Assembly: GCA_017935195.1 (NCBI GenBank)
Contig: JAGBIB010000065.1
Span: 1 to 45,163 of the forward strand
DNA length: 45,163 bases
Direction of reading: 5' to 3'
DNA from: Clostridia bacterium
GTDB lineage: Bacteria > Bacillota > Clostridia > Oscillospirales > CAG-272
Shown here: in pieces, positions 7,980-31,237 of the stretch
Layout of the letters: every line of letters starts with the position of its first letter
Numbering within the stretch: position 1 is the first letter of the stretch
The notes under the pieces: generated by a model
Told to the model about the DNA's origin: nothing
Seen by the model: only the letters and a program-made list of their open reading frames with translations
Databases searched by the model: none
Made by a program: the position numbers and the translations under genes

Positions 7980-8177
7980 CCCCATTTTGGAGTTTTTTAA
8001 AAAAAGATCTTTGCCTCTAAAAAAGGGCGCTCATTCACAAGAAGTTTAAAAATAATTTCGATATGATGCTTGTCTTTTGCTCCGTTTGCAGGTATAATGG
8101 GAAAAGATCGGGAGAATCCTCGTCCCGACTGCCCCAAATGTATATAAATGTATATTTTTTGTCGAAAGGACTGCCTC

Positions 8178-17000: not shown

Positions 17001-17282
17001 TATCAGATCGACTCCTCCAAGGTGGGTCTGGTGAGCGTTCAGGAAAAAGCGCCCAGAGAGGGCAGTGACCTTTCGGCTATGACCAAATGGTTTTCCCGGC
17101 TTTCGGGCGATGAGGTGGGTGTTTACAGCTACGAACAGGCGGGCATATACTATCTGCTCATCGAAAACTCCGCCGCAGTGGAAGCCCTTTCGATATGCAC
17201 GGCACAATCGCCCCGCGCCCTGCTTGTCTGGAAGGATCGAGACGACAGCCTTTGCGTGCAGAGTATGCTCTTTCCCGCATAA
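14100..17282 (+). CDS. Lipoprotein glycoside hydrolase of clan GH-D (GH36/alpha-galactosidase-like) with a ~300-aa uncharacterised C-terminal extension
   Basis: Lipobox LPLASC plus an S/P-rich linker. IDQYRQDFN resembles the KWDxN nucleophile block. IDACASGGMRNDL resembles the CSGGGGRxD acid/base block. Confidence 0.7.
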   Translation: MMPFSSPLKRTVASLLMLASLALPLASCSKGAKTTEQGPSPSVPSSPSSSLSEESGKDTTSKGEESMYGSSNYVNKYADTAAMDKWLSENVEGKTSPPVTFQVGSKSSADYVWQKTVGQKKQVIYFEEEMPAESIHLPITYRCPDLSLRVELTLISYTGYPVVEYTATLYNDGEGNSKAVSNLLAADYQVEGKEGDKTLHASRGATTTYTDFEPLSYQLNGKKHFEVTNGKPTSTYIPYFNLENKEQNTGTIAILNWQGNWKADFIPEKEGVSLKAGQHTVNVVLQKGESLDFPGMVLLFYKGDRMNGQNVYRRWLYCCNQFREQGKKMKETNVLVCPAEYNINSNRKTIALYVKTGLIDYIDKFNIDGGWYDTEGQTWYHTGNWYTVKRNYPQGIKQLSQLVHDEGLQFAVWFEPERVAWGTATTEALKAMKGLLLPPAAGKTATDYSTVPDGYTEVILDYSNPEVVQWVIDMLNTRFEENDIDQYRQDFNTSPAAQWSALDRTRKAELGISRIGYTENKYCKGYLDVYAGILAENPQMYIDACASGGMRNDLSTIRYSFMHTRSDYWADIESAQLQTYGSSMWFMYWGTGFSSADCNDYDVRSHIGNSIGVGISNESQAQNLKDALTEWKHFAGYLFYDYYPLSDYVGSTKKTMALQYDSPEQGMGLLITYFRKNDTFTLRPEGLDPKALYEVWDFDDKKGSLKTMTGEELMAGIRITSTASTAIVYEYKLAEGQDTTAFQTEEVPTGKGWGGYDPDGGKDDKEELTDVTIPTVTTPYENPMADERLGALYDLKEANTIKLLTADYRTTGLVYAISKDIYDELIFTDYEADGWKAINEGALFVSADGKSFYPFTTWDGNGSLFKNVEPFAKKIGNGYFLWLANLLPFADGDGGWKSSEGALKWNKKSGGVGQSALTLDFSESGGRIVSAGSDGFEKNGTVYKIDKAIFESFAYTGKGIKKGEVTLYQIDSSKVGLVSVQEKAPREGSDLSAMTKWFSRLSGDEVGVYSYEQAGIYYLLIENSAAVEALSICTAQSPRALLVWKDRDDSLCVQSMLFPA

Positions 17283-17306
17283 TCCCATATAACCCATATA
17301 AAATCA

Positions 17307-17340
17307 AAATGACCTGCTTGATGCAAAGCAGGTCATTTTT
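17307..17340 (+). terminator. Intrinsic terminator after the GH36-like gene
   Basis: AAAATGACCTGCTT-GATGCA-AAGCAGGTCATTTTT. Confidence 0.85.
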
Positions 17341-17356
17341 GATTTATCGTATAACG

Positions 17357-17395
17357 AAAAGACGAGCCGCGGCACAAAATCTGCGGCTCGTCTTC
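17357..17395 (-). terminator. Intrinsic terminator after the GDPD gene
   Basis: GAAGACGAGCCGC-loop-GCGGCTCGTCTTTTCG on the minus strand. Confidence 0.8.
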
Positions 17396-17400
17396 CTTTT

Positions 17401-18210
17401 TCAAAAGGTAAATCCCTCAAAGATCACCCCGTGCCCCCGTTCAAAAGCGGTCTTTGCGGCGGTCTTATCCTTCACCGTCCAGAAAAAGAGGGGGACGCCC
17501 GCCATTTTGGCAATCCGCAGGGGCAGGCTTTTTTCGTCCTCCAGACGGTAGGCAATGAAATCGGGGCGGGTAAAAAGATTCAGGATCATCAGATAAAGGG
17601 GGATGCGCAAATAAAGGGGCTGTCCCTTCATTTTCATAAAATTGCAGGAAAGCTGTCCTCTTGCCATCTGCGGTGCCTGCTTTTTGAGCGCCAGCAGGAT
17701 GCGGGGATCAAAGGACTCCAGAATATAGTCGCCCTCGTACCCCTCCAGCACCTTCACCGTGGCGGCGACGAGGGCGTCGGCATTGCTCCCGTCGTGCTTG
17801 AGCTCTATCAGCAGAGGCACTCTGCCCTTCACCACCTCCAGCACAAGGGGCAGGGTGGGCAGTGGCTCGCCGTTTGAAAGGGGATGGCGCATCAGCTCCG
17901 CAAGAGGACACGCACACACCTTCAAGTCCACCCCGCAGGTACGGGCAAGGCTGTCGTCGTGCATCACCGCAAGCTGACCGTCAAGGGTCAGATGCAGGTC
18001 AAACTCGATGCCGTAGCCCTCGTTTACCGCCCTTTTGATGGCGGCAAGGGAGTTTTCGGGTGTTTTTTCATCGTGAAGCCCTCTGTGGGCAAAGGGGACG
18101 CCCTGCAGCTTTTTTACAAGCGGATGCTTTTTTCTAAAGCAGGCGGGGGCAAAAAGGACGGTCAACGAGGCAAGCGTCGCCAATAAAAGAAGGACGATGA
18201 CCCACTCCAT
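17401..18210 (-). CDS. Membrane-anchored glycerophosphodiester phosphodiesterase (GDPD)
   Basis: N-terminal TM helix. FAHRGL, PENSL, IEFDLHLT and AVMHD give a complete GDPD catalytic set. The ATG lies 1 nt after the MFS stop. Confidence 0.85.
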   Translation of the reverse strand: MEWVIVLLLLATLASLTVLFAPACFRKKHPLVKKLQGVPFAHRGLHDEKTPENSLAAIKRAVNEGYGIEFDLHLTLDGQLAVMHDDSLARTCGVDLKVCACPLAELMRHPLSNGEPLPTLPLVLEVVKGRVPLLIELKHDGSNADALVAATVKVLEGYEGDYILESFDPRILLALKKQAPQMARGQLSCNFMKMKGQPLYLRIPLYLMILNLFTRPDFIAYRLEDEKSLPLRIAKMAGVPLFFWTVKDKTAAKTAFERGHGVIFEGFTF

Positions 18211-18211
18211 C

Positions 18212-19732
18212 TCAGTCTCCCACGTCCATCTGCTCTAAAACCGACTGCTTCCTTCCGGGCTTGCTATCGCCGTGCTTGACGAAGAGCATGGTGAGGAAGG
18301 ACAGCGCCACGAAGAGCGCCGAATAGGGGAAGAGGGTGCGCATATCAAGATCCATCAGCGCCCCCGAAAAGACGGGCGTGACCGTCTGCGCCGCCATGGA
18401 GGCGGTATAGTAATAGCCGGTGTATTTGCCCACGCTTCCGCCCTTGGCAAGCTCCACCACCATGGGGAAGGAGTTGACGTTGATCATCCCCCACCCAAGA
18501 CCTGCCACGATGAAGCAGGCAATGGGCAAAAAGGCGGGGGTCTGCTTGCCCACAAATGCCATCACCGCCATAGCACTACCCAGCATCGCCACGCCGATGA
18601 GGATGGAGCGCTTGCGCCCGATACGGGTGGCGATCATGCCGGCAGGCAGGAAGGAGGCAAGGCCCGCAATCTGCGCCACCAACATGGCAGAGTTGAAGTC
18701 CATATTCAAAACGGGGGCGGCATAGACCGAGAATTTGGTGGTCACCGCATTAAAGCCCATATACCAAAGGGCAACCGAGGCAAGAAGAAGGATGAGCGAC
18801 CGCTTTTCGCCCTTACTGAGCCTTCTGTCGCCCTCCTCGCTTTCCTCCGTTCCCTCAAAAAGACGGTCCTGCGCCTCTGCCTCCCTTGCCCAACGGGGTT
18901 CCTTCACGGTAAAAAGGAAGATGAGCAGTGCGGCAAGCATCACGCCTGCCAGCGCGGCAAAGTATCCGCCGTAGGGCGAAAGGGCGTTTTCCGCCTTGCC
19001 CGTGCCGAAAAGCATTCCGATGCCAATGAGCGACACCGTGCCGCAGGCACCCATCAGGTTGATGACGGCGTTGCCCTTGGAGCGCAGGGGCTTGGGGGTC
19101 ACGTCGGGCATCAACGCCACGGCAGGCGAGCGGAACAATCCCATGGCGAGCAGGACGAAAAAGAGGGTGAGGACGAAAAAGATCAGCGGAGCGGGACTGC
19201 GCCTTGACTGCGCCGCCGCATACGCCCCTCTTGCCGATACCACGTAGGTGGTATAGTCCTCACTTTCGGGATCGGTTAAGGAAAGGAAGTCTTCCTTCTC
19301 AATAAAGGAGGACAGCGCCCCTCTTTTCCCCTCCACTCTGATCTCGGGGTCTGCCTCGTAAAGGGTCTGCAGAGCGGTGGGATTTTGGGGATCTACCGCC
19401 GAAAGACGGTCGCTTTGCACCATATCCGAGCAGATAATACCCACGATGGCAAGGCAGGAAAGGAGGGTGCCGATGAGGATGAAGGGGGTGCGCTTGCCGC
19501 TTTTGTGCTTGCATTTGTCGGAAAGCGCCCCGAAAAAGGGAAGCAGGAAGAGGGCAAGGACGTTATCTAACGCCATTATGACGCCCGAAAGCCACTGCGC
19601 CATTCCGAATTTGTCGGTCAAAATCTTTGGAATGATGGTATCGTACGCCTGCCAGAACGCCATAATGAGGAAAAAGGCAAGTCCCACCAGGATCGTTCTT
19701 TTGGCATTCAGCTTCAAGGGTGTGTTGTTCAT
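18212..19732 (-). CDS. MFS transporter (GPH/SLC45-like) with a large hydrophilic loop
   Basis: About 12 TM helices. ATG 19732 (MNNTPLKLNAKR...) has RBS GAAAGGAA 7 nt upstream. The 19801 start in the ORF track runs through a terminator hairpin. Confidence 0.8.
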   Translation of the reverse strand: MNNTPLKLNAKRTILVGLAFFLIMAFWQAYDTIIPKILTDKFGMAQWLSGVIMALDNVLALFLLPFFGALSDKCKHKSGKRTPFILIGTLLSCLAIVGIICSDMVQSDRLSAVDPQNPTALQTLYEADPEIRVEGKRGALSSFIEKEDFLSLTDPESEDYTTYVVSARGAYAAAQSRRSPAPLIFFVLTLFFVLLAMGLFRSPAVALMPDVTPKPLRSKGNAVINLMGACGTVSLIGIGMLFGTGKAENALSPYGGYFAALAGVMLAALLIFLFTVKEPRWAREAEAQDRLFEGTEESEEGDRRLSKGEKRSLILLLASVALWYMGFNAVTTKFSVYAAPVLNMDFNSAMLVAQIAGLASFLPAGMIATRIGRKRSILIGVAMLGSAMAVMAFVGKQTPAFLPIACFIVAGLGWGMINVNSFPMVVELAKGGSVGKYTGYYYTASMAAQTVTPVFSGALMDLDMRTLFPYSALFVALSFLTMLFVKHGDSKPGRKQSVLEQMDVGD

Positions 19733-19744
19733 AAATATTCCTTT

Positions 19745-19785
19745 CAAAAAAGACGCCGCCTCGGGGCGTTTGCATCGGGGCGGCG
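19745..19785 (-). terminator. GC-rich hairpin plus T-run between the MATE and MFS genes (internal terminator or attenuator)
   Basis: Minus strand CGCCGCCCCG-loop-CGAGGCGGCG-TCTTTTTT, directly abutting the MFS RBS. Confidence 0.55.
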
Positions 19786-19797
19786 AAAAGGGTTTGG

Positions 19798-21393
19798 TCA
19801 ATTGGCGCTTGCCTGCACCTCTTCAAGGGGCAGATCAAGGGGCTTTAACAGCTTTTTGTAGGTACGCACGAAGAGGAAGATGCTGATGATCAGCGCAACG
19901 CCCTCTGCAATGGGATAGGCGGCAAAGATGGCAACCAACCCGAATGTCTTTGCAAAAACGAAGGACAGCGGCAGGATGACCACGATCTGACGGATAAGCG
20001 AAATGATCAGGCTGGGCATACCCAGACCCAGCGCCTGCAGGCTTGAAATGGTGATGATACATACCCCCGCAAAAAGGAAGCACAGGCTGATGATGCGCAT
20101 AGCGGGCTCACCGTATTTCAGCACCGCCTGAGTTTCTGTCAGGTGAAACTCTTCCTCCGCCTCGCCGTCAAGGGAGGGCAGCGCTTCCTCGGGAAGGCTT
20201 TCAAGAGCGCCCGCCTCGGGGGCTTCGTCCTCCTGATAGAAGACCTTCAAAAGGGTGCCCGACATGGTTTGGAAGACCGCAAGGCCGAGGAGCATATAGA
20301 TGACTGCCGCCATCACCGCAATCTTCAAGGTCTTCATGATCCTCTTTTTGGAGCGCATACCGTAGTTGTACGCCACGATGGGGATCATACCGTTGTTCAT
20401 CCCGAAAATGGGCATAAAGACAAAGGACTGCAGACGGAAATACACACCGTAAATGGACACACCCACCAGACGGTCTGCGGCAAGCTTTGCCGCCGTGGCA
20501 GGGGACATCCCTTCCTTGATATAGGTCACCTGTTCGCCGATGGTGAGGATCTTGTTGATCGCCATGGTCAAGAAGGAACCCACCGCCGCCATAAAGATGG
20601 AAGGAAGTCCAACGGTGTAAATGCTCTTGATCACCTGAAAATCGGGCTTGAAGCCCTTAAAGGACAGGCTGATCTCCTTGTTATACTTCAGATTCAAGAA
20701 CAAGCCCACCCCTGCGGCGGTAAACTGTCCGATCACCGTGGCAAGAGCCGCACCAAGGGTTCCCATACCAAGACCGAAGGGCAGAGTGATGCCAAACAGC
20801 TCGTCGCCTGCGCTGAGGATGAAGATGGGGTCCAAAATGATGTTCACAATGGCGCCAAGACCCTGGGTGTACATCGAAAGCTTTGCCTTGCCCGTTGCCT
20901 GCAGAAGCCGCTCGAAGGTCACCTGAAAAAAGACGCCTGCGCAAGCCACCATCACCACGAACAGATAGTCTACGCCCAGATCATAGGTCAGCGTGCCCGG
21001 CTCTGCGTCGGTGAGATAGGTGAAATACGCCTTGGTGCCCACCACGCCCAAAAGCATAAAGAGGACGGTGGTGATGGCAATGACGAACAGACCGTTGGTC
21101 GCCGCCTTGTTTGCCTTGTCGGGACGCTTTTCGCCAAGAGCTCTTGAAAGATAACTATTGATGCCCACGCCCGTGCCGGTGGCAAAGGCGATAAGCAGGT
21201 TCTGGATGGGGAAGGCAAGGGAGAGAGCGGTCACACCCGCACTGTCAAAGCTTGCCACCACCAGACTGTCGTAAATATTATAAAATGCCTGCACCATCAT
21301 GGAGATGACCATGGGGAAAGCCATGGTAAAGAGCAGCTTGCCCTCGGGCATGGTGCCCATGATGTTTTCCCTTGTCTTTTGCGCTTTTTCCAT
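19798..21393 (-). CDS. MATE-family efflux transporter
   Basis: 12-TM MATE pattern (LLFTMAFPMVISMMVQ...). The predicted promoter puts the TSS at about 21446, which argues against the 21444 ATG and for ATG 21393 (AGAGGGA about 10 nt upstream). There is a 36-aa acidic insert near the C-terminal third. Confidence 0.85.
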   Translation of the reverse strand: MEKAQKTRENIMGTMPEGKLLFTMAFPMVISMMVQAFYNIYDSLVVASFDSAGVTALSLAFPIQNLLIAFATGTGVGINSYLSRALGEKRPDKANKAATNGLFVIAITTVLFMLLGVVGTKAYFTYLTDAEPGTLTYDLGVDYLFVVMVACAGVFFQVTFERLLQATGKAKLSMYTQGLGAIVNIILDPIFILSAGDELFGITLPFGLGMGTLGAALATVIGQFTAAGVGLFLNLKYNKEISLSFKGFKPDFQVIKSIYTVGLPSIFMAAVGSFLTMAINKILTIGEQVTYIKEGMSPATAAKLAADRLVGVSIYGVYFRLQSFVFMPIFGMNNGMIPIVAYNYGMRSKKRIMKTLKIAVMAAVIYMLLGLAVFQTMSGTLLKVFYQEDEAPEAGALESLPEEALPSLDGEAEEEFHLTETQAVLKYGEPAMRIISLCFLFAGVCIITISSLQALGLGMPSLIISLIRQIVVILPLSFVFAKTFGLVAIFAAYPIAEGVALIISIFLFVRTYKKLLKPLDLPLEEVQASAN

Positions 21394-21518: not shown

Positions 21519-23000
21519 GTAAATTCTCAAAGTAAATGCAACAGTGCAATTTAGAAGTTGCATTTAGTGTGAGAAGGATTTTGTGGTACAATTTAGTCTG
21601 AGAAATGGAGGTCTCAGACAATGAAAAACAACGAAAAGAAAAACAAGCATATGACCCTCGATGACAGAATCGAGATTCAAGAGTGCCTAAGCAAAGGGAT
21701 GACCTTTAAGGCGATTGGAGAACGGATAGGCAAAAGCCAAACAACGATTTCCAGAGAAGTGAAAATTCATATGGGACCATACACAAATTCGTTTGTGAGA
21801 ACAGACGAAGTATGTCCCAAACTTTTGAAAGCACCGTTTGTTTGTAATGGTTGCGAGAAGAAAAGCCGCAGTAGTTGTCCGTATAGACGGCAACTATATA
21901 CTGCAAAGAAAGCGCAAGCTGAATACGACACAGTGCTGGTAGAATCTCGTACAGGAATACCGCTGAACAAAGAGAGCTTCTACGAAACAGAACGTATTAT
22001 CTCAGAAGCAGTTCAAAACGGACAACATATCTACCACATCATTCAATCCAATAATCTGCCCATATCAACTGCCACAGTATATCGCCATATCCAAAAGAGA
22101 TATTACTCAATTACTCCAATGGATCTTCCAAGAGCTGTGAAATTCAAGCCTAGAAACTCTAAAGAAAGTGATTATGTGCCCAAGTGGGCTCGCGAAGGTC
22201 GTACATTTGACGATTTCCTTGCTTTTGTGGAAGATAACCGTGATATTCCTCTTGTACAACTGGATACCGTGATTGGAAAGATCGGGGGCAAGGTCATTAT
22301 GACGATTCACTTTGTGAACAGTGATTTTATGATCGGGTTGTTGCTTGAAAACAAAACGGCTGCTGAAGCCGCAAGTAAAATCCAAGGCTTAAAAGCAGAG
22401 TTAAATACTTTAGGCTTTCGCTTCGGAGATATTGCACCGCTTTTACTCACCGACAACGGCGGCGAATTCAGTATTGTTTCTGCTTTTGAAAACGATACCG
22501 AAGGTAACGCTGAATCGAATATGTTCTTCTGCGAGCCGTGCTCGCCTCATGAAAAGGCTGAGATTGAGAAGAACCACACTCTTTTCCGAGATGTTGTAAA
22601 AACCGGAACTTCGTTTGACGATTTCTCTCAAGAAACGGTCAACTTGATCTTCTCCCACGTTAACGCAGTAAAAAGAAAACAATTTAACGGGAAAAGCGCA
22701 TATGATATGTTTTCTTTTTACTACTCAGAGCTTTTAGCATCTGCCTTGGGGATTTCCTTCGTTCCGGCAAATGAAGTTATTCAATCTCCTAAATTGTTAG
22801 CGAAATTCTTCTCATAGTAAACGCAACCATAGTTGCATTTAGTCTGAGAAATTGACCTCTCAGGCTTTTTTGCCATGCTCTTTTTTATCTTTTTCGCTTT
22901 CTTTAGTCGCTTTTTCTTATATTTCTCATACTTATTGCAACCAATTTCTCATAGTAAATGCAAGGGCTTTGCTACTGTTGCATTTACTTTGAGAATTTAC
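21519..23000 (+). mobile_element. Intact IS30-family insertion sequence (1,482 bp)
   Basis: Perfect 27-bp terminal inverted repeats: GTAAATTCTCAAAGTAAATGCAACAGT (21519..21545) and its reverse complement (22974..23000). It carries a single transposase ORF and is visibly AT-richer than the flanks. Confidence 0.9.
21621..22817 (+). CDS. IS30-family DDE transposase
   Basis: 398 aa. N-terminal HTH (LDDRIEIQECLSKGMTFKAIGERIGKSQTTISREV). DDE blocks QLDTVIG, LLLTDNGGEF and PHEKAEIEKNHTLFR. Confidence 0.9.
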   Translation: MKNNEKKNKHMTLDDRIEIQECLSKGMTFKAIGERIGKSQTTISREVKIHMGPYTNSFVRTDEVCPKLLKAPFVCNGCEKKSRSSCPYRRQLYTAKKAQAEYDTVLVESRTGIPLNKESFYETERIISEAVQNGQHIYHIIQSNNLPISTATVYRHIQKRYYSITPMDLPRAVKFKPRNSKESDYVPKWAREGRTFDDFLAFVEDNRDIPLVQLDTVIGKIGGKVIMTIHFVNSDFMIGLLLENKTAAEAASKIQGLKAELNTLGFRFGDIAPLLLTDNGGEFSIVSAFENDTEGNAESNMFFCEPCSPHEKAEIEKNHTLFRDVVKTGTSFDDFSQETVNLIFSHVNAVKRKQFNGKSAYDMFSFYYSELLASALGISFVPANEVIQSPKLLAKFFS

Positions 23001-23015: not shown

Positions 23016-23169
23016 ACGATTCAAAACAACTCCAAAGAAAAAGACGTTCCGAATGCGGGGCATTCAAAGAACATCTTTCTTCAAATTCTTCAAATTTCTT
23101 TAAATATTTCCGGTTCCTTAACGCTTTCCGAGCACAAGACTCTTCTGCGTTTTCAGCCCATCTGTCCGA

Positions 23170-23583
23170 TCAGGACTTTTTGGCCTTGGCTCTCATGTAT
23201 TCCCGCCAATCCAAATCCCCTCTGTCAAGGGCCATCACCAGCACCTCTGCTGTGGCGATATTGGTGGCAACGGGAATGTTATACAGATCGCACACCCGCA
23301 AAAGCTCGATATTATGGGTATCCTCCAGCGATTTGGGGGCAGTATCTCTGAAATAGAGCAACAGATCGATCTCATCGTAGCATACTCTGGAAGCGACCTG
23401 CTCCATGCCGCCAAGACTGCCTGCCAAAAGGCTCTCTGTCTTCAGACCCGTGGCCTCCGCAATATATTTCGCCGTCTTTCCCGTGGCGCACAAACGGTGC
23501 TTGGACAAAATGCCGCAGTATGCAATACAAAATTCCACCATCAGCTCTTTTTTCTTGTCGTCAGCGATCAGTGCGATCTCCAT
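23170..23583 (-). CDS. MGS-like domain protein: a methylglyoxal-synthase homolog lacking the canonical catalytic residues
   Basis: 137 aa, apparently collinear without gaps with MgsA (alignment from memory). AHD becomes ADD, ATGTTG becomes ATGKTA, GPxGGDxQ becomes GSLGGMEQ, and PHxPD becomes LEDTH. RBS AGAAAGGA. Confidence 0.75.
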   Translation of the reverse strand: MEIALIADDKKKELMVEFCIAYCGILSKHRLCATGKTAKYIAEATGLKTESLLAGSLGGMEQVASRVCYDEIDLLLYFRDTAPKSLEDTHNIELLRVCDLYNIPVATNIATAEVLVMALDRGDLDWREYMRAKAKKS

Positions 23584-23631
23584 GGTTGCCCATCCTTTCT
23601 TGCCTTTTCATGCCTCTGATCCCTTTGAGGA

Positions 23632-24396
23632 TCAAAGACCTCTTCTCCATTTCTTTCCGTCCTTCATCCCCTCAAAAAGCAGAGGATGCTCGCCAAGCAC
23701 TCTTGAAGCGATATTATCAAAGGGTCGCTCCTTCTCCTCATCATATGCCGCCGCTCTGCCCTCCTCAAGCCGCCTTGAAAGAGGCGGCGCTGCCGGCACA
23801 ATGCCCACAAGCGGCCGTCCCACCAAATCGATCATCTCATAAGGGCGCAAGCTTCCCTCTTCCCGCGGCTCCCAAACCGCCATGCCGTTTAACAGCAAAA
23901 GAGCCTCCTTTTCCGAAGACAGCTCAGCGGACACCCTTTGTGCACCCAAAAGAGCGGTGGGCTCGGTTGTGGAAAGGATCAAATGAAGATCTGAGATCTT
24001 TTCAAAGTATCCCCTTTCAGCGGCCGAGGACGGGGTATCCAAGATGATCAAATCGGGAGCACAGCAGGAAATCATCCGAAAAAGCGCTTCCCTGAGCATC
24101 TCTTCCTCAGGTAACGCTCCCAATGCACCGCAAGGACAAAGATAAAGTCCCTGCTCTTCGTTCAAAGGAAAGAGGACCTTTTCTGCCTCCTTTCCCGAAA
24201 GCAGATCGGAGAGCCCGAACAGAATGCGATCCTCCACTCCAAAAAGCAGATCAAGAGTGTGGATCCGGGGATCGAGGTCCACCAAAAGCACCCTTTTTCC
24301 CTTTCTTGCAAGGGCTGTTGCAAGAAAGCAGGAAACAAACGATCGCCCCACGCCTCCCTTGGGAGAGCAGACAGCGATCACACCGTTTTTCTCCAT
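23632..24396 (-). CDS. MinD/ParA-family P-loop protein with an Arg replacing the Walker-A lysine
   Basis: 254 aa, MinD-like along the full length (LVDLDPRIHTLDLLFGVEDRI, DLIILDTPSS, STTEPTAL, GIVP). The P-loop reads SPKGGVGRS instead of GKGGVGK[ST]. The start is taken at MEKNGVIAV, and a promoter lies upstream. Confidence 0.8.
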   Translation of the reverse strand: MEKNGVIAVCSPKGGVGRSFVSCFLATALARKGKRVLLVDLDPRIHTLDLLFGVEDRILFGLSDLLSGKEAEKVLFPLNEEQGLYLCPCGALGALPEEEMLREALFRMISCCAPDLIILDTPSSAAERGYFEKISDLHLILSTTEPTALLGAQRVSAELSSEKEALLLLNGMAVWEPREEGSLRPYEMIDLVGRPLVGIVPAAPPLSRRLEEGRAAAYDEEKERPFDNIASRVLGEHPLLFEGMKDGKKWRRGL

Positions 24397-24468: not shown

Positions 24469-24497
24469 ATGATACCAAATTTGCTGCCGTTTGTCAA
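24469..24497 (-). promoter_or_regulatory. sigmaA-type promoter of the MinD-like/MGS-like operon
   Basis: Minus strand TTGACA (24492..24497)-N17-TATCAT (24469..24474). Confidence 0.55.
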
Positions 24498-24765: not shown

Positions 24766-24794
24766 TTGACATTTTTTCAAAAACATTGTATACT
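24766..24794 (+). promoter_or_regulatory. sigmaA-type promoter of the tandem zincin lipoprotein genes
   Basis: TTGACA (24766..24771)-N17-TATACT (24789..24794), followed by the 5'-UTR hairpin GGAGCGCA-TCTCCC-TGCGCTCC. Confidence 0.6.
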
Positions 24795-24851
24795 CAAAGA
24801 AGAAGGAGCGCATCTCCCTGCGCTCCCCTACCACAGAAAGGAATCACTGCC

Positions 24852-26417
24852 ATGAAAAAACTCGTTGCCATTCTTTCGGTACTTCTTGTTGCGCTGTCGG
24901 CCTTCACCGCTTGCAGCAATAAGACGACCACCGAAGAAAACAAGCCCGCATCGCCCACCCCTTCCTCCCCTGAGGAATCGGTCAGCGAAGTGCCCACCCC
25001 CTCCGATCCTCAGTCGGAGCTGCCCACCGAGCAGTCCTCCCCCGCACCCTCTTCCTCCCCCGTCCTGCCCACCCCTACCCCCTCGGACGAGAAGAAGGAA
25101 GGCGATCCCATGACCGAGGAGGAGCTGGGCGTTTTACCCGTGGGACAGTACATCGTAACACCTGTCGGCACCACCACACCCATCAGCTACGCCAAGGAGG
25201 GCGAAGCGGATGACGTGAATGTGGCCTCCGGACTTGGCGGTGCGCTCAACGAGCTGACCATCGTATACCAGACCCACAAGGATCCCTATTATCTGGTCTT
25301 TGCGGGAAGTGACAGTATGCACGTTCTGGGCTCTCCCGACCGTTTCTATGTGAACGAAGGCGAGGACGTGGTCTTCAGAGGCAAAAAATACACCAGCGGC
25401 TCCACCACCTACTACGACGACAAAAGAGAAACACTCCAGTGGCGCATCGAAAAGAACGAAGACGGCTCCTACACCTTCGTGATCAACAAGGACAGAAGCC
25501 TTTGTATGTCCTTAAAGGATGGCAAGCTGGTCTTTGAAAAGAGAGAAAGCGCCACCGGCATCACCTCCTTCAATCTGGAAATGAAGACGAGAGGCGGCGG
25601 AGATGCCTTCATCCAGTACATCAGCGACGAGGGCAACGTGGTGGTTCGCTTGGAGCCCGGCATCAAGAAGGCATCCAAGGCAACCGACGAAATGCTCCAG
25701 ACCTGGGCAAACAATCTGGACGACGCCTACAACCACTATATCGACCTGACCACCTTCACCGCTCACGAGAGCATCGTGGTCAAGGGCTATGAGCCCTCTC
25801 CCCACATCGGTTACGTTTGGAACTCCCTGGAGCATTACAACGTCATCACCATTTCGGCATCCTTCCTCAGAACCGACCTGAACAAGATGGCTACCCGTTG
25901 GAAGAAGGACGGTGTGGTTGACTGGAACTTCTGCGCCCTGCATGAAATGGGACATATGTTCGACAACCAGCAGCCTTGGTACTTTGAAGCAGAGATGATG
26001 ACCGACCTGAAGGTGGGCTACGTTCTGCAGGCAGGCGGCGGCTGCGCCGCTCCCTCCGAATATTCGGCTCTTCAGTACTTCTATGCCGACGGCATCGAAG
26101 GGCACGCACAGATCGAGGAATGCTATCTTGGCCTTTCGGCAAAAAAGCAGCCCATTGCAAAGAGCCTTGAATACGGTGCTTACGGTGCGGCCTTAAAGTT
26201 CATCGAGATCCAGAGAGAGATCGACGATGAGAACTGGACGGTCTACAAGCAGGCATATGCCGAGTTATATAAGGAAGGCAGAACCACTTACGTCAACTAC
26301 GAAAAGTTTGAAAATTTCGTTGCCAAGCTTTCCAAGTTCTCGGGCAAGGATGTCAAAGCGCTGTTCACCGAGAAGGAGTGGAACGTCTACATGACCAAAT
26401 ACGGCTACACAGGTTAA
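24852..26417 (+). CDS. Secreted lipoprotein zinc-metallopeptidase-like protein (HEMGH...E gluzincin), paralog A
   Basis: Lipobox LSAFTAC and a ~90-aa S/P/T-rich linker. The middle module contains QWRIEKNEDGSYTF, a possible beta-trefoil QxW. C-terminal FCALHEMGHMFDNQQPWYFEAEMMTD. Confidence 0.7.
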   Translation: MKKLVAILSVLLVALSAFTACSNKTTTEENKPASPTPSSPEESVSEVPTPSDPQSELPTEQSSPAPSSSPVLPTPTPSDEKKEGDPMTEEELGVLPVGQYIVTPVGTTTPISYAKEGEADDVNVASGLGGALNELTIVYQTHKDPYYLVFAGSDSMHVLGSPDRFYVNEGEDVVFRGKKYTSGSTTYYDDKRETLQWRIEKNEDGSYTFVINKDRSLCMSLKDGKLVFEKRESATGITSFNLEMKTRGGGDAFIQYISDEGNVVVRLEPGIKKASKATDEMLQTWANNLDDAYNHYIDLTTFTAHESIVVKGYEPSPHIGYVWNSLEHYNVITISASFLRTDLNKMATRWKKDGVVDWNFCALHEMGHMFDNQQPWYFEAEMMTDLKVGYVLQAGGGCAAPSEYSALQYFYADGIEGHAQIEECYLGLSAKKQPIAKSLEYGAYGAALKFIEIQREIDDENWTVYKQAYAELYKEGRTTYVNYEKFENFVAKLSKFSGKDVKALFTEKEWNVYMTKYGYTG

Positions 26418-26485
26418 ATAAATAAAAGCAATTCTCCAATCAAGCGATATCCAAAACATAACAAAAAGGAAAGGATACCACCAAA

Positions 26486-27874
26486 ATGAAAAGAATTCTT
26501 GCGATCCTGCTCGTTATACTGTTTTCCTTGACGCTTTTTGCCTCCTGCAACAAGAAACAGGAAAGCACCTCTCCCTCCTCCCCCTCCTCTCTGCCCTCCT
26601 CTTCTGCCCCCTCTCCCGCTCCCGAGCTGAGCACCTCTCTGCCTCAGGGCACCTCTCCCGAGGATGTGGAGGCTGAGCCCGTAAAGATCCCCTTCGGCCT
26701 TTACAAGATCACCTCCAGCGACGGCAAGGTGCTCGGCTACGACAACACCAACACCCCCGGCTATGAGGAGACCGATTACAAGCGCACCTGCTGGACTGTT
26801 GAGTCCTTCTTGGACGCCAAGGGTCGCCGAGGCTACACCCTGTACGCAGGCGATCTGCCCTCCTTTGCACTGACCGCTCAAAAGGCTCTGCCCGGTGGCA
26901 CCACCAAGGTCTTCCAGTCCTCTGCCGTCAATCCCGAAAAGAAGCAGCTCTTCTATCTTGAAGAATATGAGGACGGTACCTTTGCATTAAAGAGTGCCGT
27001 CAACCCCATCTTCGCCCTTGCCGCTACCGACGAAACGCCCTCTCTGGCTCTCTTTGCCGAGGCAGGCGAGGAGATCAAATGGAAGTTTGAGCCTCTGACC
27101 GAAGGGTGTGACCGCTATGTGGAGTGGAGAAGCGTCAACGGTCTGTTCACCGTCCGCATGGGTCCCGACATCCTGAGAAGAGCCCGCATCTCCTCCGAGC
27201 GTATGCAGGAATGGGCCAACCAGATGGAAAACGTCTACTACTCCTACGTTGAGTTGACCGGCTTCGTTCCCTACCAGCACATCATCTTCAAGGCGTATGA
27301 GGGTGAGGAATACCCCGGCTACGTAATGGGCAACTACATGGTCATCTCTGCCGATAAGGACTTCATGTACACCGACCTCGGTAAGATGGCACAGAGAGAC
27401 ACCATGGGCGTGACCGACTACAACTTCTTGCTGCTCCACGAAATGGGTCATATGTTTGACTGGGGCAGACAGTGGGACTTCGAGGGCGAGGCAATGACCG
27501 ACATCAAGGTCAGCTACGCTCTTTACGACAACCCCGAAGCGGTTGCCGCTCCCTCCGAGTTTGGCGCAAAGGAATACTTTAACGGCCAAAACATCAACGA
27601 ATGCTACAACGAGTGCGCAGGCAACAAGCCCATGAACGGCACCTACAACATCTTCCGCACCGCTGCGATCTTCACCGAATTCGGTCAGATGGATAACTGG
27701 GAGACCATGAAAAAGACCTATCACTGGTTCGAGGAATCGGGCTGGAAGGCACAAAACAACACCGAAATGCTTGAAAAGTATGTGGAAAAGCTTTCCGAGT
27801 TCTCGGGCAAGGACATCCGTTCCATGATCGCTGACAAGGAATGGGAAACCATCGTAGCAAAAACCCAAGGATAA
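26486..27874 (+). CDS. Secreted lipoprotein zinc-metallopeptidase-like protein (HEMGH...E gluzincin), paralog B
   Basis: Lipobox LTLFASC and an S/P-rich linker. LLLHEMGHMFDWGRQWDFEGEAMTD. It is collinear with paralog A through the C-terminus (KLSEFSGKDIRSMIADKEW versus KLSKFSGKDVKALFTEKEW). There is no terminator between the two genes. Confidence 0.7.
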   Translation: MKRILAILLVILFSLTLFASCNKKQESTSPSSPSSLPSSSAPSPAPELSTSLPQGTSPEDVEAEPVKIPFGLYKITSSDGKVLGYDNTNTPGYEETDYKRTCWTVESFLDAKGRRGYTLYAGDLPSFALTAQKALPGGTTKVFQSSAVNPEKKQLFYLEEYEDGTFALKSAVNPIFALAATDETPSLALFAEAGEEIKWKFEPLTEGCDRYVEWRSVNGLFTVRMGPDILRRARISSERMQEWANQMENVYYSYVELTGFVPYQHIIFKAYEGEEYPGYVMGNYMVISADKDFMYTDLGKMAQRDTMGVTDYNFLLLHEMGHMFDWGRQWDFEGEAMTDIKVSYALYDNPEAVAAPSEFGAKEYFNGQNINECYNECAGNKPMNGTYNIFRTAAIFTEFGQMDNWETMKKTYHWFEESGWKAQNNTEMLEKYVEKLSEFSGKDIRSMIADKEWETIVAKTQG

Positions 27875-27895
27875 CAACGAATCGTCAACAAAGAT

Positions 27896-27941
27896 AAAAA
27901 GGCTGTCTGCCTGCGGATTCCCGCAGGCAGACAGCCTTTTT
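27896..27941. terminator. Bidirectional terminator
   Basis: AAAAAGGCTGTCTGCCTGCGG-ATTC-CCGCAGGCAGACAGCCTTTTT, a perfect 16-bp GC-rich stem flanked by A and T runs. Confidence 0.9.
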
Positions 27942-27955
27942 ATCTTCTCGTTTTT

Positions 27956-29155
27956 TTAAAAGTGCTTGGCAAGACCGCCCTCGGAGGTCTCTCTGTATTC
28001 AACACCCAAGTCCCGTCCCGTTTCGTACATGGTCTTGACCACCACGTCAAAGGAGATCTTACGGGTACCCACAAGGAAATTTGCCAAAGACAGGGCGTTG
28101 ATGGCGCGCATTGCCGCCACGGCATTGCGCTCGATACAGGGGATCTGCACCAGTCCGCAGACGGGATCGCAGGTCAGACCCAGATGATGCTCTAAGGACA
28201 CCTCCGCCGCGTATTCGATCTGGTGGATGCCCATTTCAAACATCTCGGCAAGTCCTGCCGCCGCCATAGCGCAGGCAGTACCCACCTCGGCCTGACATCC
28301 GCACTCCGCTCCCGAAACCGAGGCGTTTTGCTTGACCAGATTGCCGATGAGCCCCGCCACCGCAAGGGCGCGGATGACCCGCTCGTCGTCAAATCCCTTC
28401 TTTTCCTGCATATACTTCAGCACCGACGGCACCACTGCGCAAGCACCGCAGGTGGGGGCGGTGACGATGGTCTTACAGTCGGCGTTCTGCTCGCTTGCCG
28501 CAAAGGCGTAGGCGCAGACGATGCGGTTTTCCTTGGTCTCGGGTCGCTCGTCGATATGCCCTCTGTTATAAAGAAGCTGTGCCACTCTTTCCACGTTCAA
28601 CCCACCGGGCAAGATCCCCGAGGTGGTAAGCCCCCCTTGGATCTCCTCCTTCATCACCTGCCAGATATCGTAAAGGAAATGGCGAATCTCGGGGCCCTCG
28701 GTTTCAAAAACATAGTCGGAAAGACGGATCTTTTTGGCTTTACACAGCGCAGCGATCTCGGTGAAGCTGTTTTCCTTGTATATCTCGGGCTTTTCCTCTT
28801 CGGGACAGCCCTCAATGCGGATGTCACCGCCGCCCACCGAAAGAATACGGGTGCGCAAAAGCTCCTTCCCCTCCTTATAGGCGATAAAGTCCATGGTGTT
28901 GGCGTGGGGAAGCGTTTCTGCCGGGGTATCGTTATCAAAAACGATCTTCACGGGCTTGGGCGCAATGGTCTCCTCAATGGCGGCATCGGTGCGGTGTCCC
29001 TTGCCCGTTGCCGCAAGGGATCCGTACAAGATCACCTCGTAGCTATCGGCATCGGGGGTCTTTGAAAGAAAATACTTGCTTGCCTTTTCAGGTCCCATGG
29101 TGTGGGAGCTGGAGGGGCCTCTGCCCACCTTGTACAGTTCACGAAGAGATTTCAT
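27956..29155 (-). CDS. sdaA: Iron-sulfur L-serine ammonia-lyase (single-chain L-serine dehydratase)
   Basis: N-terminal LYKVGRGPSSSHTMGP. Cluster-ligand region TAPTCGACAV...SGAECGCQAEVGTACAMAA. Confidence 0.85.
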   Translation of the reverse strand: MKSLRELYKVGRGPSSSHTMGPEKASKYFLSKTPDADSYEVILYGSLAATGKGHRTDAAIEETIAPKPVKIVFDNDTPAETLPHANTMDFIAYKEGKELLRTRILSVGGGDIRIEGCPEEEKPEIYKENSFTEIAALCKAKKIRLSDYVFETEGPEIRHFLYDIWQVMKEEIQGGLTTSGILPGGLNVERVAQLLYNRGHIDERPETKENRIVCAYAFAASEQNADCKTIVTAPTCGACAVVPSVLKYMQEKKGFDDERVIRALAVAGLIGNLVKQNASVSGAECGCQAEVGTACAMAAAGLAEMFEMGIHQIEYAAEVSLEHHLGLTCDPVCGLVQIPCIERNAVAAMRAINALSLANFLVGTRKISFDVVVKTMYETGRDLGVEYRETSEGGLAKHF

Positions 29156-29243
29156 AACGCGTCCTTTCTGAAAAGAATGGTTTTTTCGGTCTTATTTATG
29201 GGGAAATGCCCTCTTCACAAGGGTCTTGTTCGTTGCCAAAAGG

Positions 29244-30746
29244 TCATTCCTCGTCGGCAAGGATCTTGTGGTAGCGGTTTTCGTGATCGTAGATCTGCAT
29301 GGGATCGCAGTATTCCTGCATATTGTTGTAAGAAACCTCAAAAAGGCTGTCGAAATTCTTCTGCGCCTTTTGCTTTGCGGTAGCGTCATCGTTGCCGATG
29401 CTCTTGTAATAATTATAATAATAGTCCATATAGGTGGCAGCGTTGGCGTAGGTTCTCACGGTGAAGCCGGTGATGGTAAAGCGCTCCAGATAAATGGTAC
29501 CGGTGCCGGAGGCGATGCCGCCTTCTTTTGGCTGCTTGCCGTCCCAGATGGTGTTGAGCTGGGAGGTGCCGCAGAACATCACGAAGCCCTCCTTCAGGAG
29601 CAGATCGTGCTTTGCCGTGCCGTGGTTGGTCCATGCACCGTAGGGGTAGATGAAGACCTTGGTCTCACCGATGAGCGGCTTGACGTTTCTGTTCCACATC
29701 TCCACGTCTCTTTCCACACGGGACAGAGCGCAGTTGGTGTAGTTGTTGTGAGAATAGCTGTGGCAGGCGAAGTTGTAGCCGTTGGCCTTGAGCCAATTGA
29801 CCACCACCATTGCCTTTTCTCTTTCCTTTGCCACATCAATGCCCTGCTCGGCGTACTGCTCGTCGGTTCTGTAGCCGAGGATTCCCGCAAAGCCGGTGAG
29901 CGCCAGAGTGAACTTGGCACCGTTATAGGAGAAATCGGGGTGGGTCTTTAAGAACTTTTCAAGGATGGGGAAGACCTCGCCATCAGTGAGGGTGGTGGAA
30001 CCGTCGGCATTGTCGTAGCAACCCATAATGGTGCCGTTTTCAATGACCAGACGGTCAATCATGCCCGATCCCTTCTTTCTGGGATCGTAGGTCACGTCGT
30101 CGATAGAGAAGACCAGCGGCTTCTTGCCCTCCGGCACGGTGACGGTGGGGGCAAGCTTGGCTGTGCCGTTCTTGTGCAGAACGTACATATCGTTGATGTC
30201 GATCAGCACGAAATCGTTATCGTAAAGGGACTGGAGCAGCTTTTCAAACTCCGAAACGGTCAGGCAATCCACATCAAGAGGGCCGGATGCGGTGGCACAA
30301 CCCTTTTTGGGATCGTTGATGAGACAATGGGTAAAAACGTGGCGCACGCTGCTTGCGGGCACCTCCACCGTCTTTACAGGCTCAGGAGGATCAATGGGAT
30401 CATCGGAAGGGGTAGGTGTAGGGGTCGGGTCCTCAGAAGGAGTGGGGGTAAGGGTAGGATCCTCCGAGGGCGTGGGGGTAACAGGCTCCTTTGAGGGAGA
30501 GGAAGGCAGGGGTGCCGAAGAGGGCTCTTCGCTCGTTCCTTCGGAGGGAAGAGGAAGAAGGGAGGGCGAGGTCTGCCCTTCCGAGGGATCGGAGGGCGTG
30601 TTCACGGTAGGCTGTCCCGAAGAAGTGCCTGCCGAGGGGTCGTCCGTGCTGACCGAAATATTGGATTTGGAGCAGGCGCAAAGACCTATTGCCGAAAGCA
30701 GGCTGAGCAGCACTGCGGTAATACGAATGAGAACGGTTCTTTTCAT
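29244..30746 (-). CDS. Polysaccharide deacetylase (CE4/NodB-type) lipoprotein
   Basis: Lipobox IGLCAC (MKRTVLIRITAVLLSLLSAIGLCAC) and a long P/T/S/E linker. FSIDDV (DD motif), FACHSYSHNNY (HSxxH) and IYPYGAW. Confidence 0.8.
   Translation of the reverse strand: MKRTVLIRITAVLLSLLSAIGLCACSKSNISVSTDDPSAGTSSGQPTVNTPSDPSEGQTSPSLLPLPSEGTSEEPSSAPLPSSPSKEPVTPTPSEDPTLTPTPSEDPTPTPTPSDDPIDPPEPVKTVEVPASSVRHVFTHCLINDPKKGCATASGPLDVDCLTVSEFEKLLQSLYDNDFVLIDINDMYVLHKNGTAKLAPTVTVPEGKKPLVFSIDDVTYDPRKKGSGMIDRLVIENGTIMGCYDNADGSTTLTDGEVFPILEKFLKTHPDFSYNGAKFTLALTGFAGILGYRTDEQYAEQGIDVAKEREKAMVVVNWLKANGYNFACHSYSHNNYTNCALSRVERDVEMWNRNVKPLIGETKVFIYPYGAWTNHGTAKHDLLLKEGFVMFCGTSQLNTIWDGKQPKEGGIASGTGTIYLERFTITGFTVRTYANAATYMDYYYNYYKSIGNDDATAKQKAQKNFDSLFEVSYNNMQEYCDPMQIYDHENRYHKILADEE
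30399..30488. repeat. Three tandem ~30-bp units encoding the PTPS(E/D)DP(T) linker repeat of the deacetylase
   Basis: The protein reads PTPSEDPTLT-PTPSEDPTPT-PTPSDDP. The DNA units are visibly related, for example GGATCCTCCGAGGGCGTGGGGGTAA and GGGTCCTCAGAAGGAGTGGGGGTAA. Confidence 0.6.
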
Positions 30747-30885
30747 GTTTTTTCCTTTCGTTATCTCGGGCGATCGCCCTTTTATGAGTGCGTTCACCTT
30801 TATAGTACGTTTTTTTCGACAAACGTCATCGACTTTTTCAAAAAAAACGATTTTTTTACAATTTTTTCTCTTTTATTGCTTCCCC

Positions 30886-30914
30886 TTGCAATTTTGTCCG
30901 TTCGGTGCTATACT
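30886..30914 (+). promoter_or_regulatory. sigmaA-type promoter of the small Cys-rich protein gene
   Basis: TTGCAA-N17-TATACT, with TGc upstream of the -10. Confidence 0.55.
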
Positions 30915-30947
30915 GTAAAAAAGCAAAGAAGCAAAAAGGAGGCTTCC

Positions 30948-31181
30948 ATGAAGGACGGTACGAAAAAGGAAGGCGCAAGAAAGCAGGAAAACACCAAGAA
31001 AGCAGTGGCATCCACGCCCTGCGAGAGCTGTGAATTTTACGATGCCGACGAATACGGTGACTATTCCTGCATTATGAATTTAGACGAGGACGAGTTTTTA
31101 AGCTTTGCCTTTGGCAGCACCTCCGCCTGCCCCTATTATCGCTTTTACGACGAATACAAATTCGTGCAAAAGCAGAACTGA
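30948..31181 (+). CDS. Small Cys-rich, acidic protein (4-Cys, probable metal-binding)
   Basis: 77 aa from ATG 30948 with RBS AAAAGGAGG. CESCEFYDADEYGDYSCIMNLDEDEF...ACPYYRFYDEYK. Confidence 0.6.
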   Translation: MKDGTKKEGARKQENTKKAVASTPCESCEFYDADEYGDYSCIMNLDEDEFLSFAFGSTSACPYYRFYDEYKFVQKQN

Positions 31182-31206
31182 GCAGACGCACATCCAAAAT
31201 CCTTCC

Positions 31207-31237
31207 ACCGCGCGGTCAAAGCACCGTGCGGTTTTTC
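31207..31237 (+). terminator. Intrinsic terminator after the Cys-rich gene, overlapping the exonuclease 3' end
   Basis: ACCGCGCGGT-CAAAGC-ACCGTGCGGT-TTTT, a 10-bp stem with one G.U pair. Confidence 0.65.

Follow-up and report, generated by a model that had tools for sequence, protein, structure and literature searches.

The active methylglyoxal synthase (MGS) of C. difficile, a protein of 137 amino acids (aa), uses H8, K12, the TGTTG motif at positions 34–38, S54, G55, the catalytic base D60, and H87 (PMC7843640). In MinD of B. subtilis the K16A exchange abolishes ATP binding, leaves the protein monomeric, and has the effect of a minD deletion, whereas membrane binding persists (PMC13246001), and an MRE/MIN gene cluster has been inferred to be ancestral in the Firmicutes (PMC8136486). 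Relatives of both proteins are encoded side by side on the minus strand of contig JAGBIB010000065.1 (assembly GCA_017935195.1) from a Clostridia bacterium of the CAG-272 group of Oscillospirales; the stretch analyzed, 45,163 nucleotides (nt) from the start of the contig, is called the window below. Both the MinD-like and the MGS-like protein are altered at active-site residues, and the pair can tentatively be considered a non-catalytic binder of a phosphate-containing ligand that would act together with a MinD-derived, ATPase-dead membrane scaffold.

The MinD-like protein, a single domain of 254 aa, has its best family match in TIGR01968 (minD_bact; E = 4e-22 over residues 6–239), with 78.8 bits, below the 212.9-bit cut-off of that model. 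The best sequence match in the Protein Data Bank (PDB) is Aquifex MinD 4v03 (81 bits), the MinD proteins of Aquifex and E. coli being the best solved relatives, and Foldseek aligns the AlphaFold2 (AF2) model (predicted local distance difference test, pLDDT, 85.0) with MinD at template modeling (TM) scores of 0.75–0.81. The deviant Walker A motif reads SPKGGVGRS, so that the P-loop lysine is replaced by Arg18 (codon CGA, 24345..24343), as had been noticed in an initial annotation made from the letters of the window alone. A further change, missing from the list given there, concerns switch I, where the arginine equivalent to R44 of E. coli is His46 (codon CAC, 24261..24259). The Walker B aspartate, D120, is retained. 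The protein ends in the basic tail KDGKKWRRGL, exactly as first described; with a hydrophobic moment of 0.64 and a net charge of +3 the tail comes near the membrane-targeting sequence of E. coli MinD, being less hydrophobic, and AF2 places a short helix at residues 247–253 with low confidence. Taken together, the residues read point to a protein that is most likely unable to complete a normal ATP cycle and that would be a static, probably membrane-associated scaffold; "ATPase-dead" is a likely description of this Arg-type form.

A profile search returned a clade of nine distinct members, 35–52% identical, to which the window protein belongs (the window clade), and all nine lack the P-loop lysine. 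The window protein, P0122, P0123, and P0337 are of the Arg type (SPKGGVGRS), and L004, P0335, P0336, P0338, and L010 are of the Cys type (SLKGGVGCST or AGKGGEGCS). The switch-I arginine is likewise absent from all nine, its place being taken by His, Pro, or Tyr: the six-residue motif, GLRNLD in MinD of E. coli and B. subtilis and xxR[SC]LD in about 38 of the MinD-like partners of MGS-like genes, takes the form RIHTLD, CIHTQD, VRHSLD, or RGYAQG in this clade. The glycine-rich loop, the signature lysine, the first Walker A′ aspartate, the Walker B aspartate, the C-terminal LLFEG..K..RRSL motif, and the basic tail are conserved within the clade, and the site of E. coli D40 is also changed in some members (Asn in P0335, His in P0337). 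Cysteine in place of the P-loop lysine, in the form KGGVGCST, was seen in L004 (7080..7856), L010 (5185..5958), L092 (7001..7789), P0335, and P0338, and the switch-I residue of these Cys-type proteins is a conserved histidine, except in L010, where it is tyrosine.

About 40 other MinD-like partners were read, and nearly all of them have xKGGxGKST with Arg44 intact. Judged from these alignments, the loss of the P-loop lysine and of the switch-I arginine is confined to the small monophyletic clade of the window. The description of the locus as "two pseudoenzymes" in the initial annotation thus holds for the window clade, and it does not extend to the other partners, nearly all of which keep KGGVGKST and the switch-I arginine. 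Two MinD-like genes that seemed to lack a P-loop altogether, those of L027 and L055, proved to be an artefact of open reading frame (ORF) calling, with KGGVGKST lying in frame just upstream.

The MGS-like protein matches the NCBIfam MgsA models with E = 3e-32. It scores above the cut-off of NF003559 (111 vs 84 bits) and below that of TIGR00160 (111.8 vs 146.9 bits), and B. subtilis MgsA 6f2c is matched with 110 bits at about 46% identity. Its AF2 model (pLDDT 86.6) superposes on MgsA, 6f2c included, at TM 0.8–0.9 in Foldseek; the top 26 PDB matches are all MgsA (TM 0.75–0.82 relative to the query), and the next group is the allosteric domain of carbamoyl-phosphate synthetase. Numbered as in the C. 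difficile enzyme, which is of the same length, the protein has D8, K12, TGKTA, A54, G55, M60, and E87 at the sites listed above. The altered signatures of the initial annotation (D8, TGKTA, M60, E87) are therefore borne out by comparison with an active MGS, and the residue corresponding to D101 of E. coli is H90. Met60, encoded by ATG at 23406..23404, is directly followed by Glu61. In E. coli numbering the changes in the phosphate site are T47 to K36, G49 to A38, and S65 to A54, and Lys36 is specific to the window clade. In the altered loop E87 occupies the site of His98 and H90 that of Asp101, and the loop 92–103 is hypervariable across the family. Of the phosphate pocket, K12, T34, T37, and G55 are kept, and so are D9, D80, and R96. 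Because the catalytic base and both histidines have been lost, the protein is most likely not a methylglyoxal synthase.

The loss of MGS catalytic residues is widespread, reaching far beyond the MinD-like/MGS-like pair. The equivalent of Asp71 (relatives are numbered here as in E. coli) is missing from all 120 closest MGS-like relatives, which are 67–100% identical and come from many assemblies; position 71 is A, E, M, T, I, or L in them and His98 is variable, and K23, T45, T48, G66, and D20 are invariant, with R107 present in 116. The substitutions in both proteins are not sequencing errors, since they are common to independent relatives: with 120 of 120 MGS-like relatives lacking the aspartate and nine MinD-like members lacking the lysine, this explanation, raised as a possible refutation when the locus was first annotated, is excluded. 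Across the whole family position 71 spans A, E, M, T, I, L, K, and V. Among the 150 nearest representatives of clusters formed at 50% identity, H19, D71, and H98 occur together in only about eight, large subgroups being without His98 and others without Asp71. One subgroup of Clostridial "MgsA" (within P0184–P0333) keeps D71 and has H98S and D101N ("RDPINAKPSEPNE"); in another subgroup of the same set D71 is replaced by V, K, or S, and H98 and D101 are kept ("GGVQQ...PKSHEPD"). The MGS-like proteins encoded away from any MinD-like gene belong mostly to one clade with H19, I47, and E71, in which His19 and Glu71 are conserved. In public records these MGS-like proteins are named "methylglyoxal synthase".

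In the allosteric domain of carbamoyl-phosphate synthetase, the second structural neighbor of the MGS-like protein, the corresponding site accommodates the phosphate group of IMP or UMP, and the domain plays no part in catalysis. By this analogy the MGS-like protein may be expected to bind a small phosphate-containing ligand, for which triose phosphates, other sugar phosphates, and free phosphate come into question.

When the genomes of GTDB species were searched for the MGS-like motifs, at least 592 of them matched, and the best 80 loci all come from uncultured gut Clostridia (Oscillospiraceae, "Eubacteriales", Clostridium sp. CAG:448, Ca. Flemingiibacterium, and Ca. Avispirillum). Absence of the pairing from related genomes had been named at the outset as an argument against a functional pair; GTDB species and metagenome contigs together gave 85 non-redundant loci, and at about 43 of them a MinD-like gene stands directly upstream of the MGS-like gene, on the same strand. 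The pairing is therefore widespread, and it is old. The spacer between the paired genes has a median length of 49 nt (45 loci), the genes around the pair vary widely from locus to locus (thrS, glyA, DUF436, and many others), and MinD-like proteins of only about 33% identity still have an MGS gene next to them. The neighbor in L032 was rejected as a member of such a pair, being a tyrosine-kinase-type ATPase. Same-strand ORFs located 5′ of unpaired MGS-like genes in L038 and L082 were considered as hidden MinD-like genes and dismissed as spurious, as they have an odd composition and no match to Pfam or to the MinD-like profile.

The origin of the pair can be traced in its less diverged relatives. 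In L087 the gene order is mreB-mreC-(mreD?)-PBP2-minD-like-mgs-prfB, and in L009 PBP2 lies upstream of the pair. The MGS proteins of these two loci are nearly canonical, with H19, TGTTG, D71, and H98 kept and D101 replaced by Asn, and they are basal in a rough neighbor-joining tree. MinD is the best family for every MinD-like partner scored, from 184 to 60 bits (L087 184, L052 159, L008 159, L018 142, L009 137, L004 88, the window 79, L010 60). Because L087 carries the order mreB-mreC-PBP2-minD-like-mgs, the pair is likely what is left, in diverged form, of the Firmicute MRE/MIN cluster, with none of minC, minE, and rodA adjacent; neither minC nor minE was found beside any paired locus examined. 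The window itself contains no detectable minC or minE, in agreement with the initial annotation, and no detectable second minD or second mgsA. In the 202-aa protein P0243 the last ~50 residues of an FtsW/RodA/SpoVE protein are joined to an MGS domain; this is probably a frameshift or a merged gene call, and it shows rodA directly upstream of the MGS gene in some Clostridia. The linkage of mgsA to the min/rodA cluster, mentioned in the initial annotation, thus gains indirect support from the gene order of L087 and the gene call of P0243.

Selection was compared among three genomes that share the synteny of the window, namely, the window itself, L001, and L090. The flanking genes are 80–99% identical at the aa level, with nonsynonymous divergence (dN) of 0.004–0.14, synonymous divergence (dS) of 0.05–0.75, and dN/dS of 0.04–0.28. 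For the MinD-like gene the corresponding values are 47–52%, dN 0.47–0.51, dS 1.3–2.2, and dN/dS 0.22–0.37, and for the MGS-like gene 70–81%, dN 0.15–0.21, dS 1.2–3.2, and dN/dS 0.06–0.13; the dS of the pair is a rough estimate, given saturation and the shortness of both genes. Compared with L001 by blastn, the MinD-like gene gives no match at all and the flanks are 81–96% identical DNA. In the flanking genes dS climbs toward the pair from the upstream side. In the lineages that keep the P-loop lysine, the MinD-like gene diverges about like its neighbors and the MGS-like gene is the most conserved of the block (93–99%). Identity of the MGS-like protein was also tried as a clock, and by this measure the MinD-like gene showed no acceleration in the window clade; the measure is misleading, since the MGS-like gene was itself accelerated there, and by comparison with the flanking genes both are outliers. 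In the window clade the two genes were thus either strongly accelerated or exchanged as a unit. Both are under purifying selection and are not decaying pseudogenes. Loss of the P-loop lysine coincides with ATGKTA and GG[M/L/I]EQ in the partner in six of the six loci in which both genes were read. The block downstream of the pair (MatE, MFS, GDPD, and melibiase genes; 14808..21377) is 96% identical to L001 at the DNA level, with a dS of about 0.1, and the upstream block (24766..31629) about 81% identical, with a dS of 0.4–0.75, which suggests that the downstream block was recently recombined or transferred.

The locus has the layout of a bicistronic operon, with putative signals in the order promoter, minD-like gene, mgs-like gene, terminator (Table 1). 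Reading of the minus strand confirmed both ORFs, the gap between them, and the separate ribosome-binding site of the MGS-like gene as first annotated. The ATG at 24396 is taken as the start of the MinD-like gene on the basis of the N-termini of orthologues, and a longer, TTG-started ORF is also present. This ATG also lies about 70 nt downstream of the promoter-like site, which is a strong match, and L027 and L055 likewise have a similar site (TTGACA-17-TGnTATnAT) just ahead of their MinD-like genes. An AAAGGA sequence precedes the ATG of each gene by about 10 nt, and a terminator-like hairpin was looked for in the spacer between the two genes and none was found. Scans of the window for Rfam families and tRNA genes gave no matches.

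Table 1. Features of the MinD-like/MGS-like locus, their motifs, and neighboring genes; positions are those of the window.
Feature	Positions	Strand	Basis or remark
MinD-like gene	23632..24396 (stop codon included)	-	ORF, 254 aa
Deviant Walker A, S11-PKGGVGR-S19	24340..24366	-	signature Lys13 kept, P-loop Lys replaced by Arg18
Walker A′ and switch I, D40-L-D42-P-R-I-H46-T-L-D49	24250..24279	-	both Asp kept
C-terminal basic tail, GMKDGKKWRRGL	23635..23670	-	after the MinD-like LGE.PLLFEG motif
MGS-like gene	23170..23583 (stop codon included)	-	ORF, 137 aa
T34-G-K36-T37-A38, replacing phosphate-binding TGTTG	23470..23484	-	T34 and T37 kept
G58-G59-M60-E61, Met60 at the catalytic-base site (E. coli D71, C. 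difficile D60)	23401..23412	-	sequence reading
Loop T81-N91 (TAPKSLEDTHN), replacing P-x-x-x-x-P-H-x-P-D	23311..23343	-	alignment
Sigma-70-type promoter-like site, TTGACA-17 nt-TATCAT, TG before the second hexamer	24469..24497	-	11/12 matches
Intergenic spacer, 48 nt, with AAAGGA ribosome-binding site	23584..23631	-	sequence reading
Terminator-like hairpin followed by a T-run	23048..23068	-	~100 nt past the MGS-like stop codon
IS30-like transposase gene	21621..22817	+	Pfam detects the HTH_38 domain only
Two paralogous predicted lipoproteins, 543 and 462 aa	24786..26417, 26486..27874	+	divergent from the operon
CotH-kinase-domain protein with InlB-type repeats	8148..9920	+	
Sigma-70-family factor, 270 aa	41575..42387	-	regions 2 and 4

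Directly downstream of the pair, the IS30-like gene separates the MGS-like gene from the MatE gene. At the same position L001 and L090 contain an ORF for a 73-aa membrane protein and a gene for a TatD-type DNase, neither of which is found in the window by tblastn; the IS30-like insertion appears to have replaced both. On the other side of the operon, each of the two predicted lipoproteins has a signal peptide, a lipobox-like cysteine, a Pro/Ser-rich linker, and an HEMGH zinc-protease-like motif; they have no Pfam match, are kept in the closest relatives (cluster c6), and show a fairly high dS of 0.59–0.75. The CotH-kinase protein together with the sigma factor would fit a spore-forming host, if the latter is a sporulation sigma factor.

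The reading proposed at the outset, that of a non-catalytic phosphate-ligand binder acting with an ATPase-dead membrane scaffold derived from MinD, is put forward tentatively and falls somewhat short of being probable. According to it, both proteins would act together, the ligand state of the MGS-like protein modulating a MinD-derived role in envelope growth or division. In most lineages the MinD-like partner looks like a working ATP-dependent dimerization switch with a basic amphipathic tail, and in the window clade it would serve, much like TadZ/CpaE, as a static scaffold that is probably associated with the membrane. A more specific version, in which, in a large group of gut Clostridia with no MinC or MinE encoded beside minD, the MGS-like protein, once an enzyme of a glycolytic bypass, is a non-catalytic sensor of triose or sugar phosphate coupling carbon flux to envelope growth or division through its membrane partner, and in which ligand control replaced ATP hydrolysis as the switch in the window clade, allowing the loss of the P-loop lysine and the switch-I arginine, is a good deal more speculative and rather unlikely to hold. 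Several observations weigh against even the general form. At 41 loci, often upstream of thrS, the MGS-like gene has no MinD-like neighbor, and because about half of the sampled species keep it alone, the partnership is not obligatory and the role of the MGS-like protein cannot depend strictly on the MinD-like one. No fusion of an MGS domain to MinD or ParA was found among the long MGS-domain proteins scanned, in which the domain is joined to unrelated neighbors. The conserved Glu61 directly beside the lost aspartate is an alternative register of the kind that the initial annotation named as a possible refutation, and it might keep some chemistry, in residual catalysis or in ligand binding; 117 of the 120 close relatives have an acidic residue at one of the positions 71 and 72, as do 61 of 86 loci of the wider family. 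P-loops with an arginine are still able to bind nucleotide, and conservation extends to the glycine-rich loop and Ser19. Moreover, the dS of 1.2–3.2 of the pair could reflect the exchange of a module between lineages rather than faster evolution in place.

The unpaired loci and the absence of fusions would equally suit an adjacency that is inherited synteny and nothing else. Each protein would then work by itself, the MGS-like one as an independent regulator or binder and the MinD-like one as an orphan positioning ATPase for a different cargo. The high conservation of the MGS-like protein, with or without a MinD-like neighbor, speaks for such independence as well; however, the order of the pair and its short gap persist in dozens of species while the surroundings are reshuffled, and in the window clade both genes change together, in the coincidence of their motifs and in a divergence that exceeds that of their neighbors, which leaves inherited synteny a serious but doubtful explanation. 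That the MGS-like protein is still an enzyme is improbable. It would be either a methylglyoxal synthase with Glu61 as its base or an enzyme for a different phosphorylated substrate, and the operon would do no more than express it along with a relative of MinD, as happens in other Clostridia. This reading would account for the score above the NF003559 cut-off, the conserved phosphate-pocket residues D9, D80, and R96, the frequent acidic residue at position 71 or 72, and the conservation of Glu71 and His19 in the unpaired clade, but in place of H8, D60, and H87, whose roles were established for the C. difficile enzyme (PMC7843640), the protein of the window has D, M, and E, the TIGR00160 cut-off is not reached, and 25 of the 86 loci lack an acidic residue at both 71 and 72. 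A freely variable position 71 and a hypervariable 92–103 loop are also unlike a selected active site. Still less can be said for two further explanations. If the genes of the window clade were decaying, non-functional remnants, it would be understandable that catalytic residues are gone from both, that both are the most diverged genes of a syntenic block otherwise 80–99% identical, and that the D40 site is replaced in P0335 and P0337; yet full-length ORFs persist in at least nine independent lineages, dN/dS is 0.06–0.37 and not about 1, Arg or Cys is fixed per sub-clade with KGGxGxS, EMID, GIxP, and LLFEG..RRSL invariant, and the predicted promoter, ribosome-binding sites, and terminator are intact, so that decay hardly comes into consideration. 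Very improbable, too, is the view that conflict-type or balancing selection drives a fast diversification of the module, which would be swapped between lineages as a matched unit and have a role unrelated to cell division. Divergence does peak at the pair (dS 1.2–3.2 vs 0.05–0.75 in the flanks), the block is made up of parts with 96% and 81% DNA identity, and an IS30-like gene lies directly downstream, but the peak is the rough estimate mentioned above, given saturated dS and short genes; defense-system models give no match beyond generic P-loop similarity, the pair evolves at an ordinary or slow rate outside the window clade, and its origin in the MRE/MIN cluster is clear.

In the literature searched, nothing was found on a MinD-like/MGS-like module, on a radiation of non-catalytic MGS proteins, or on a MinD clade without the P-loop lysine. 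No paper addressing the linkage of mgsA with minD or rodA was found either, and the survey of Firmicute cell division genes (PMC8136486) does not mention mgsA. The presence of an MGS gene beside rod-shape and division genes in these Clostridia therefore offers a testable lead on an unexplained linkage: the pairing outlives the enzyme chemistry, which suggests that something other than enzyme activity ties the MGS fold to a MinD-type protein. The relatives of the MinD-like protein, grading from an intact lysine to arginine to cysteine next to the same partner gene, form a natural series for the study of a MinD/ParA switch without ATP turnover. There is also a practical side: at least 592 genomes match the sequence patterns of the family, only about eight of the 150 representatives hold the full catalytic set, and the name methylglyoxal synthase persists in public records. 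Estimates of methylglyoxal formation in the gut microbiome that count mgsA genes (for context, see PMC12291648) would then be inflated.

Both proteins come from well-known superfamilies, and the pair is not a new kind of system. Among the families named for comparable changes, the curated NF047398, "KGGVGR-motif variant AAA ATPase", is called after the same Walker A variant, so that arginine at the P-loop site has a natural precedent. The MinD-like protein cannot be counted as a member: it reaches 42.4 bits against a cut-off of 90, over residues 6–70 only, and orthologues with KGGVGK reach 48 bits, which indicates generic P-loop similarity. Among the PADLOC defense models, the MinD-like protein gives only a local P-loop match to PDC-M28B (34.9 bits, residues 6–42), and the MGS-like protein none. 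TadZ/CpaE, a localization hub of the ParA/MinD family with an atypical ATPase domain, is resembled in a possible mode of action; the MinD-like protein differs in having no receiver domain, the window contains no tad or cpa pilus genes, the TIGR03815 score of 64.7 bits is below the cut-off of 154, and the protein is not a member of that family.

The MGS-like domain of carbamoyl-phosphate synthetase, related to the MGS-like protein at TM ~0.6–0.68 and 14–22% identity, is part of a large enzyme, whereas the protein described here is free-standing; the likeness is thus an analogy of mechanism and not one of membership. With MgsA (the C. difficile enzyme, B. subtilis 6f2c, and E. coli 1b93) the protein shares the fold and K12, T34, T37, and G55, and with the first of these its length; it differs by H8D, D60M, H87E, S54A, the change of TGTTG to TGKTA, and the hypervariability of the catalytic loop in its family. 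The MinD-like protein, in turn, is set apart from MinD by its score (79 vs 213 bits for the cut-off), by the replacement of the P-loop lysine with arginine and of the switch-I arginine with histidine, by a tail less hydrophobic than known membrane-targeting sequences, by its constant neighbor, a gene of the MGS fold, and by the lack of an adjacent minC or minE in the window and in every relative examined. MinD is nevertheless its best match in both sequence and structure; the signature lysine, the Walker A′ aspartates, the Walker B aspartate, the LGE.(V)PL motif, and the basic tail are all kept, and some of its relatives are found within the mreBCD-PBP2 cluster.

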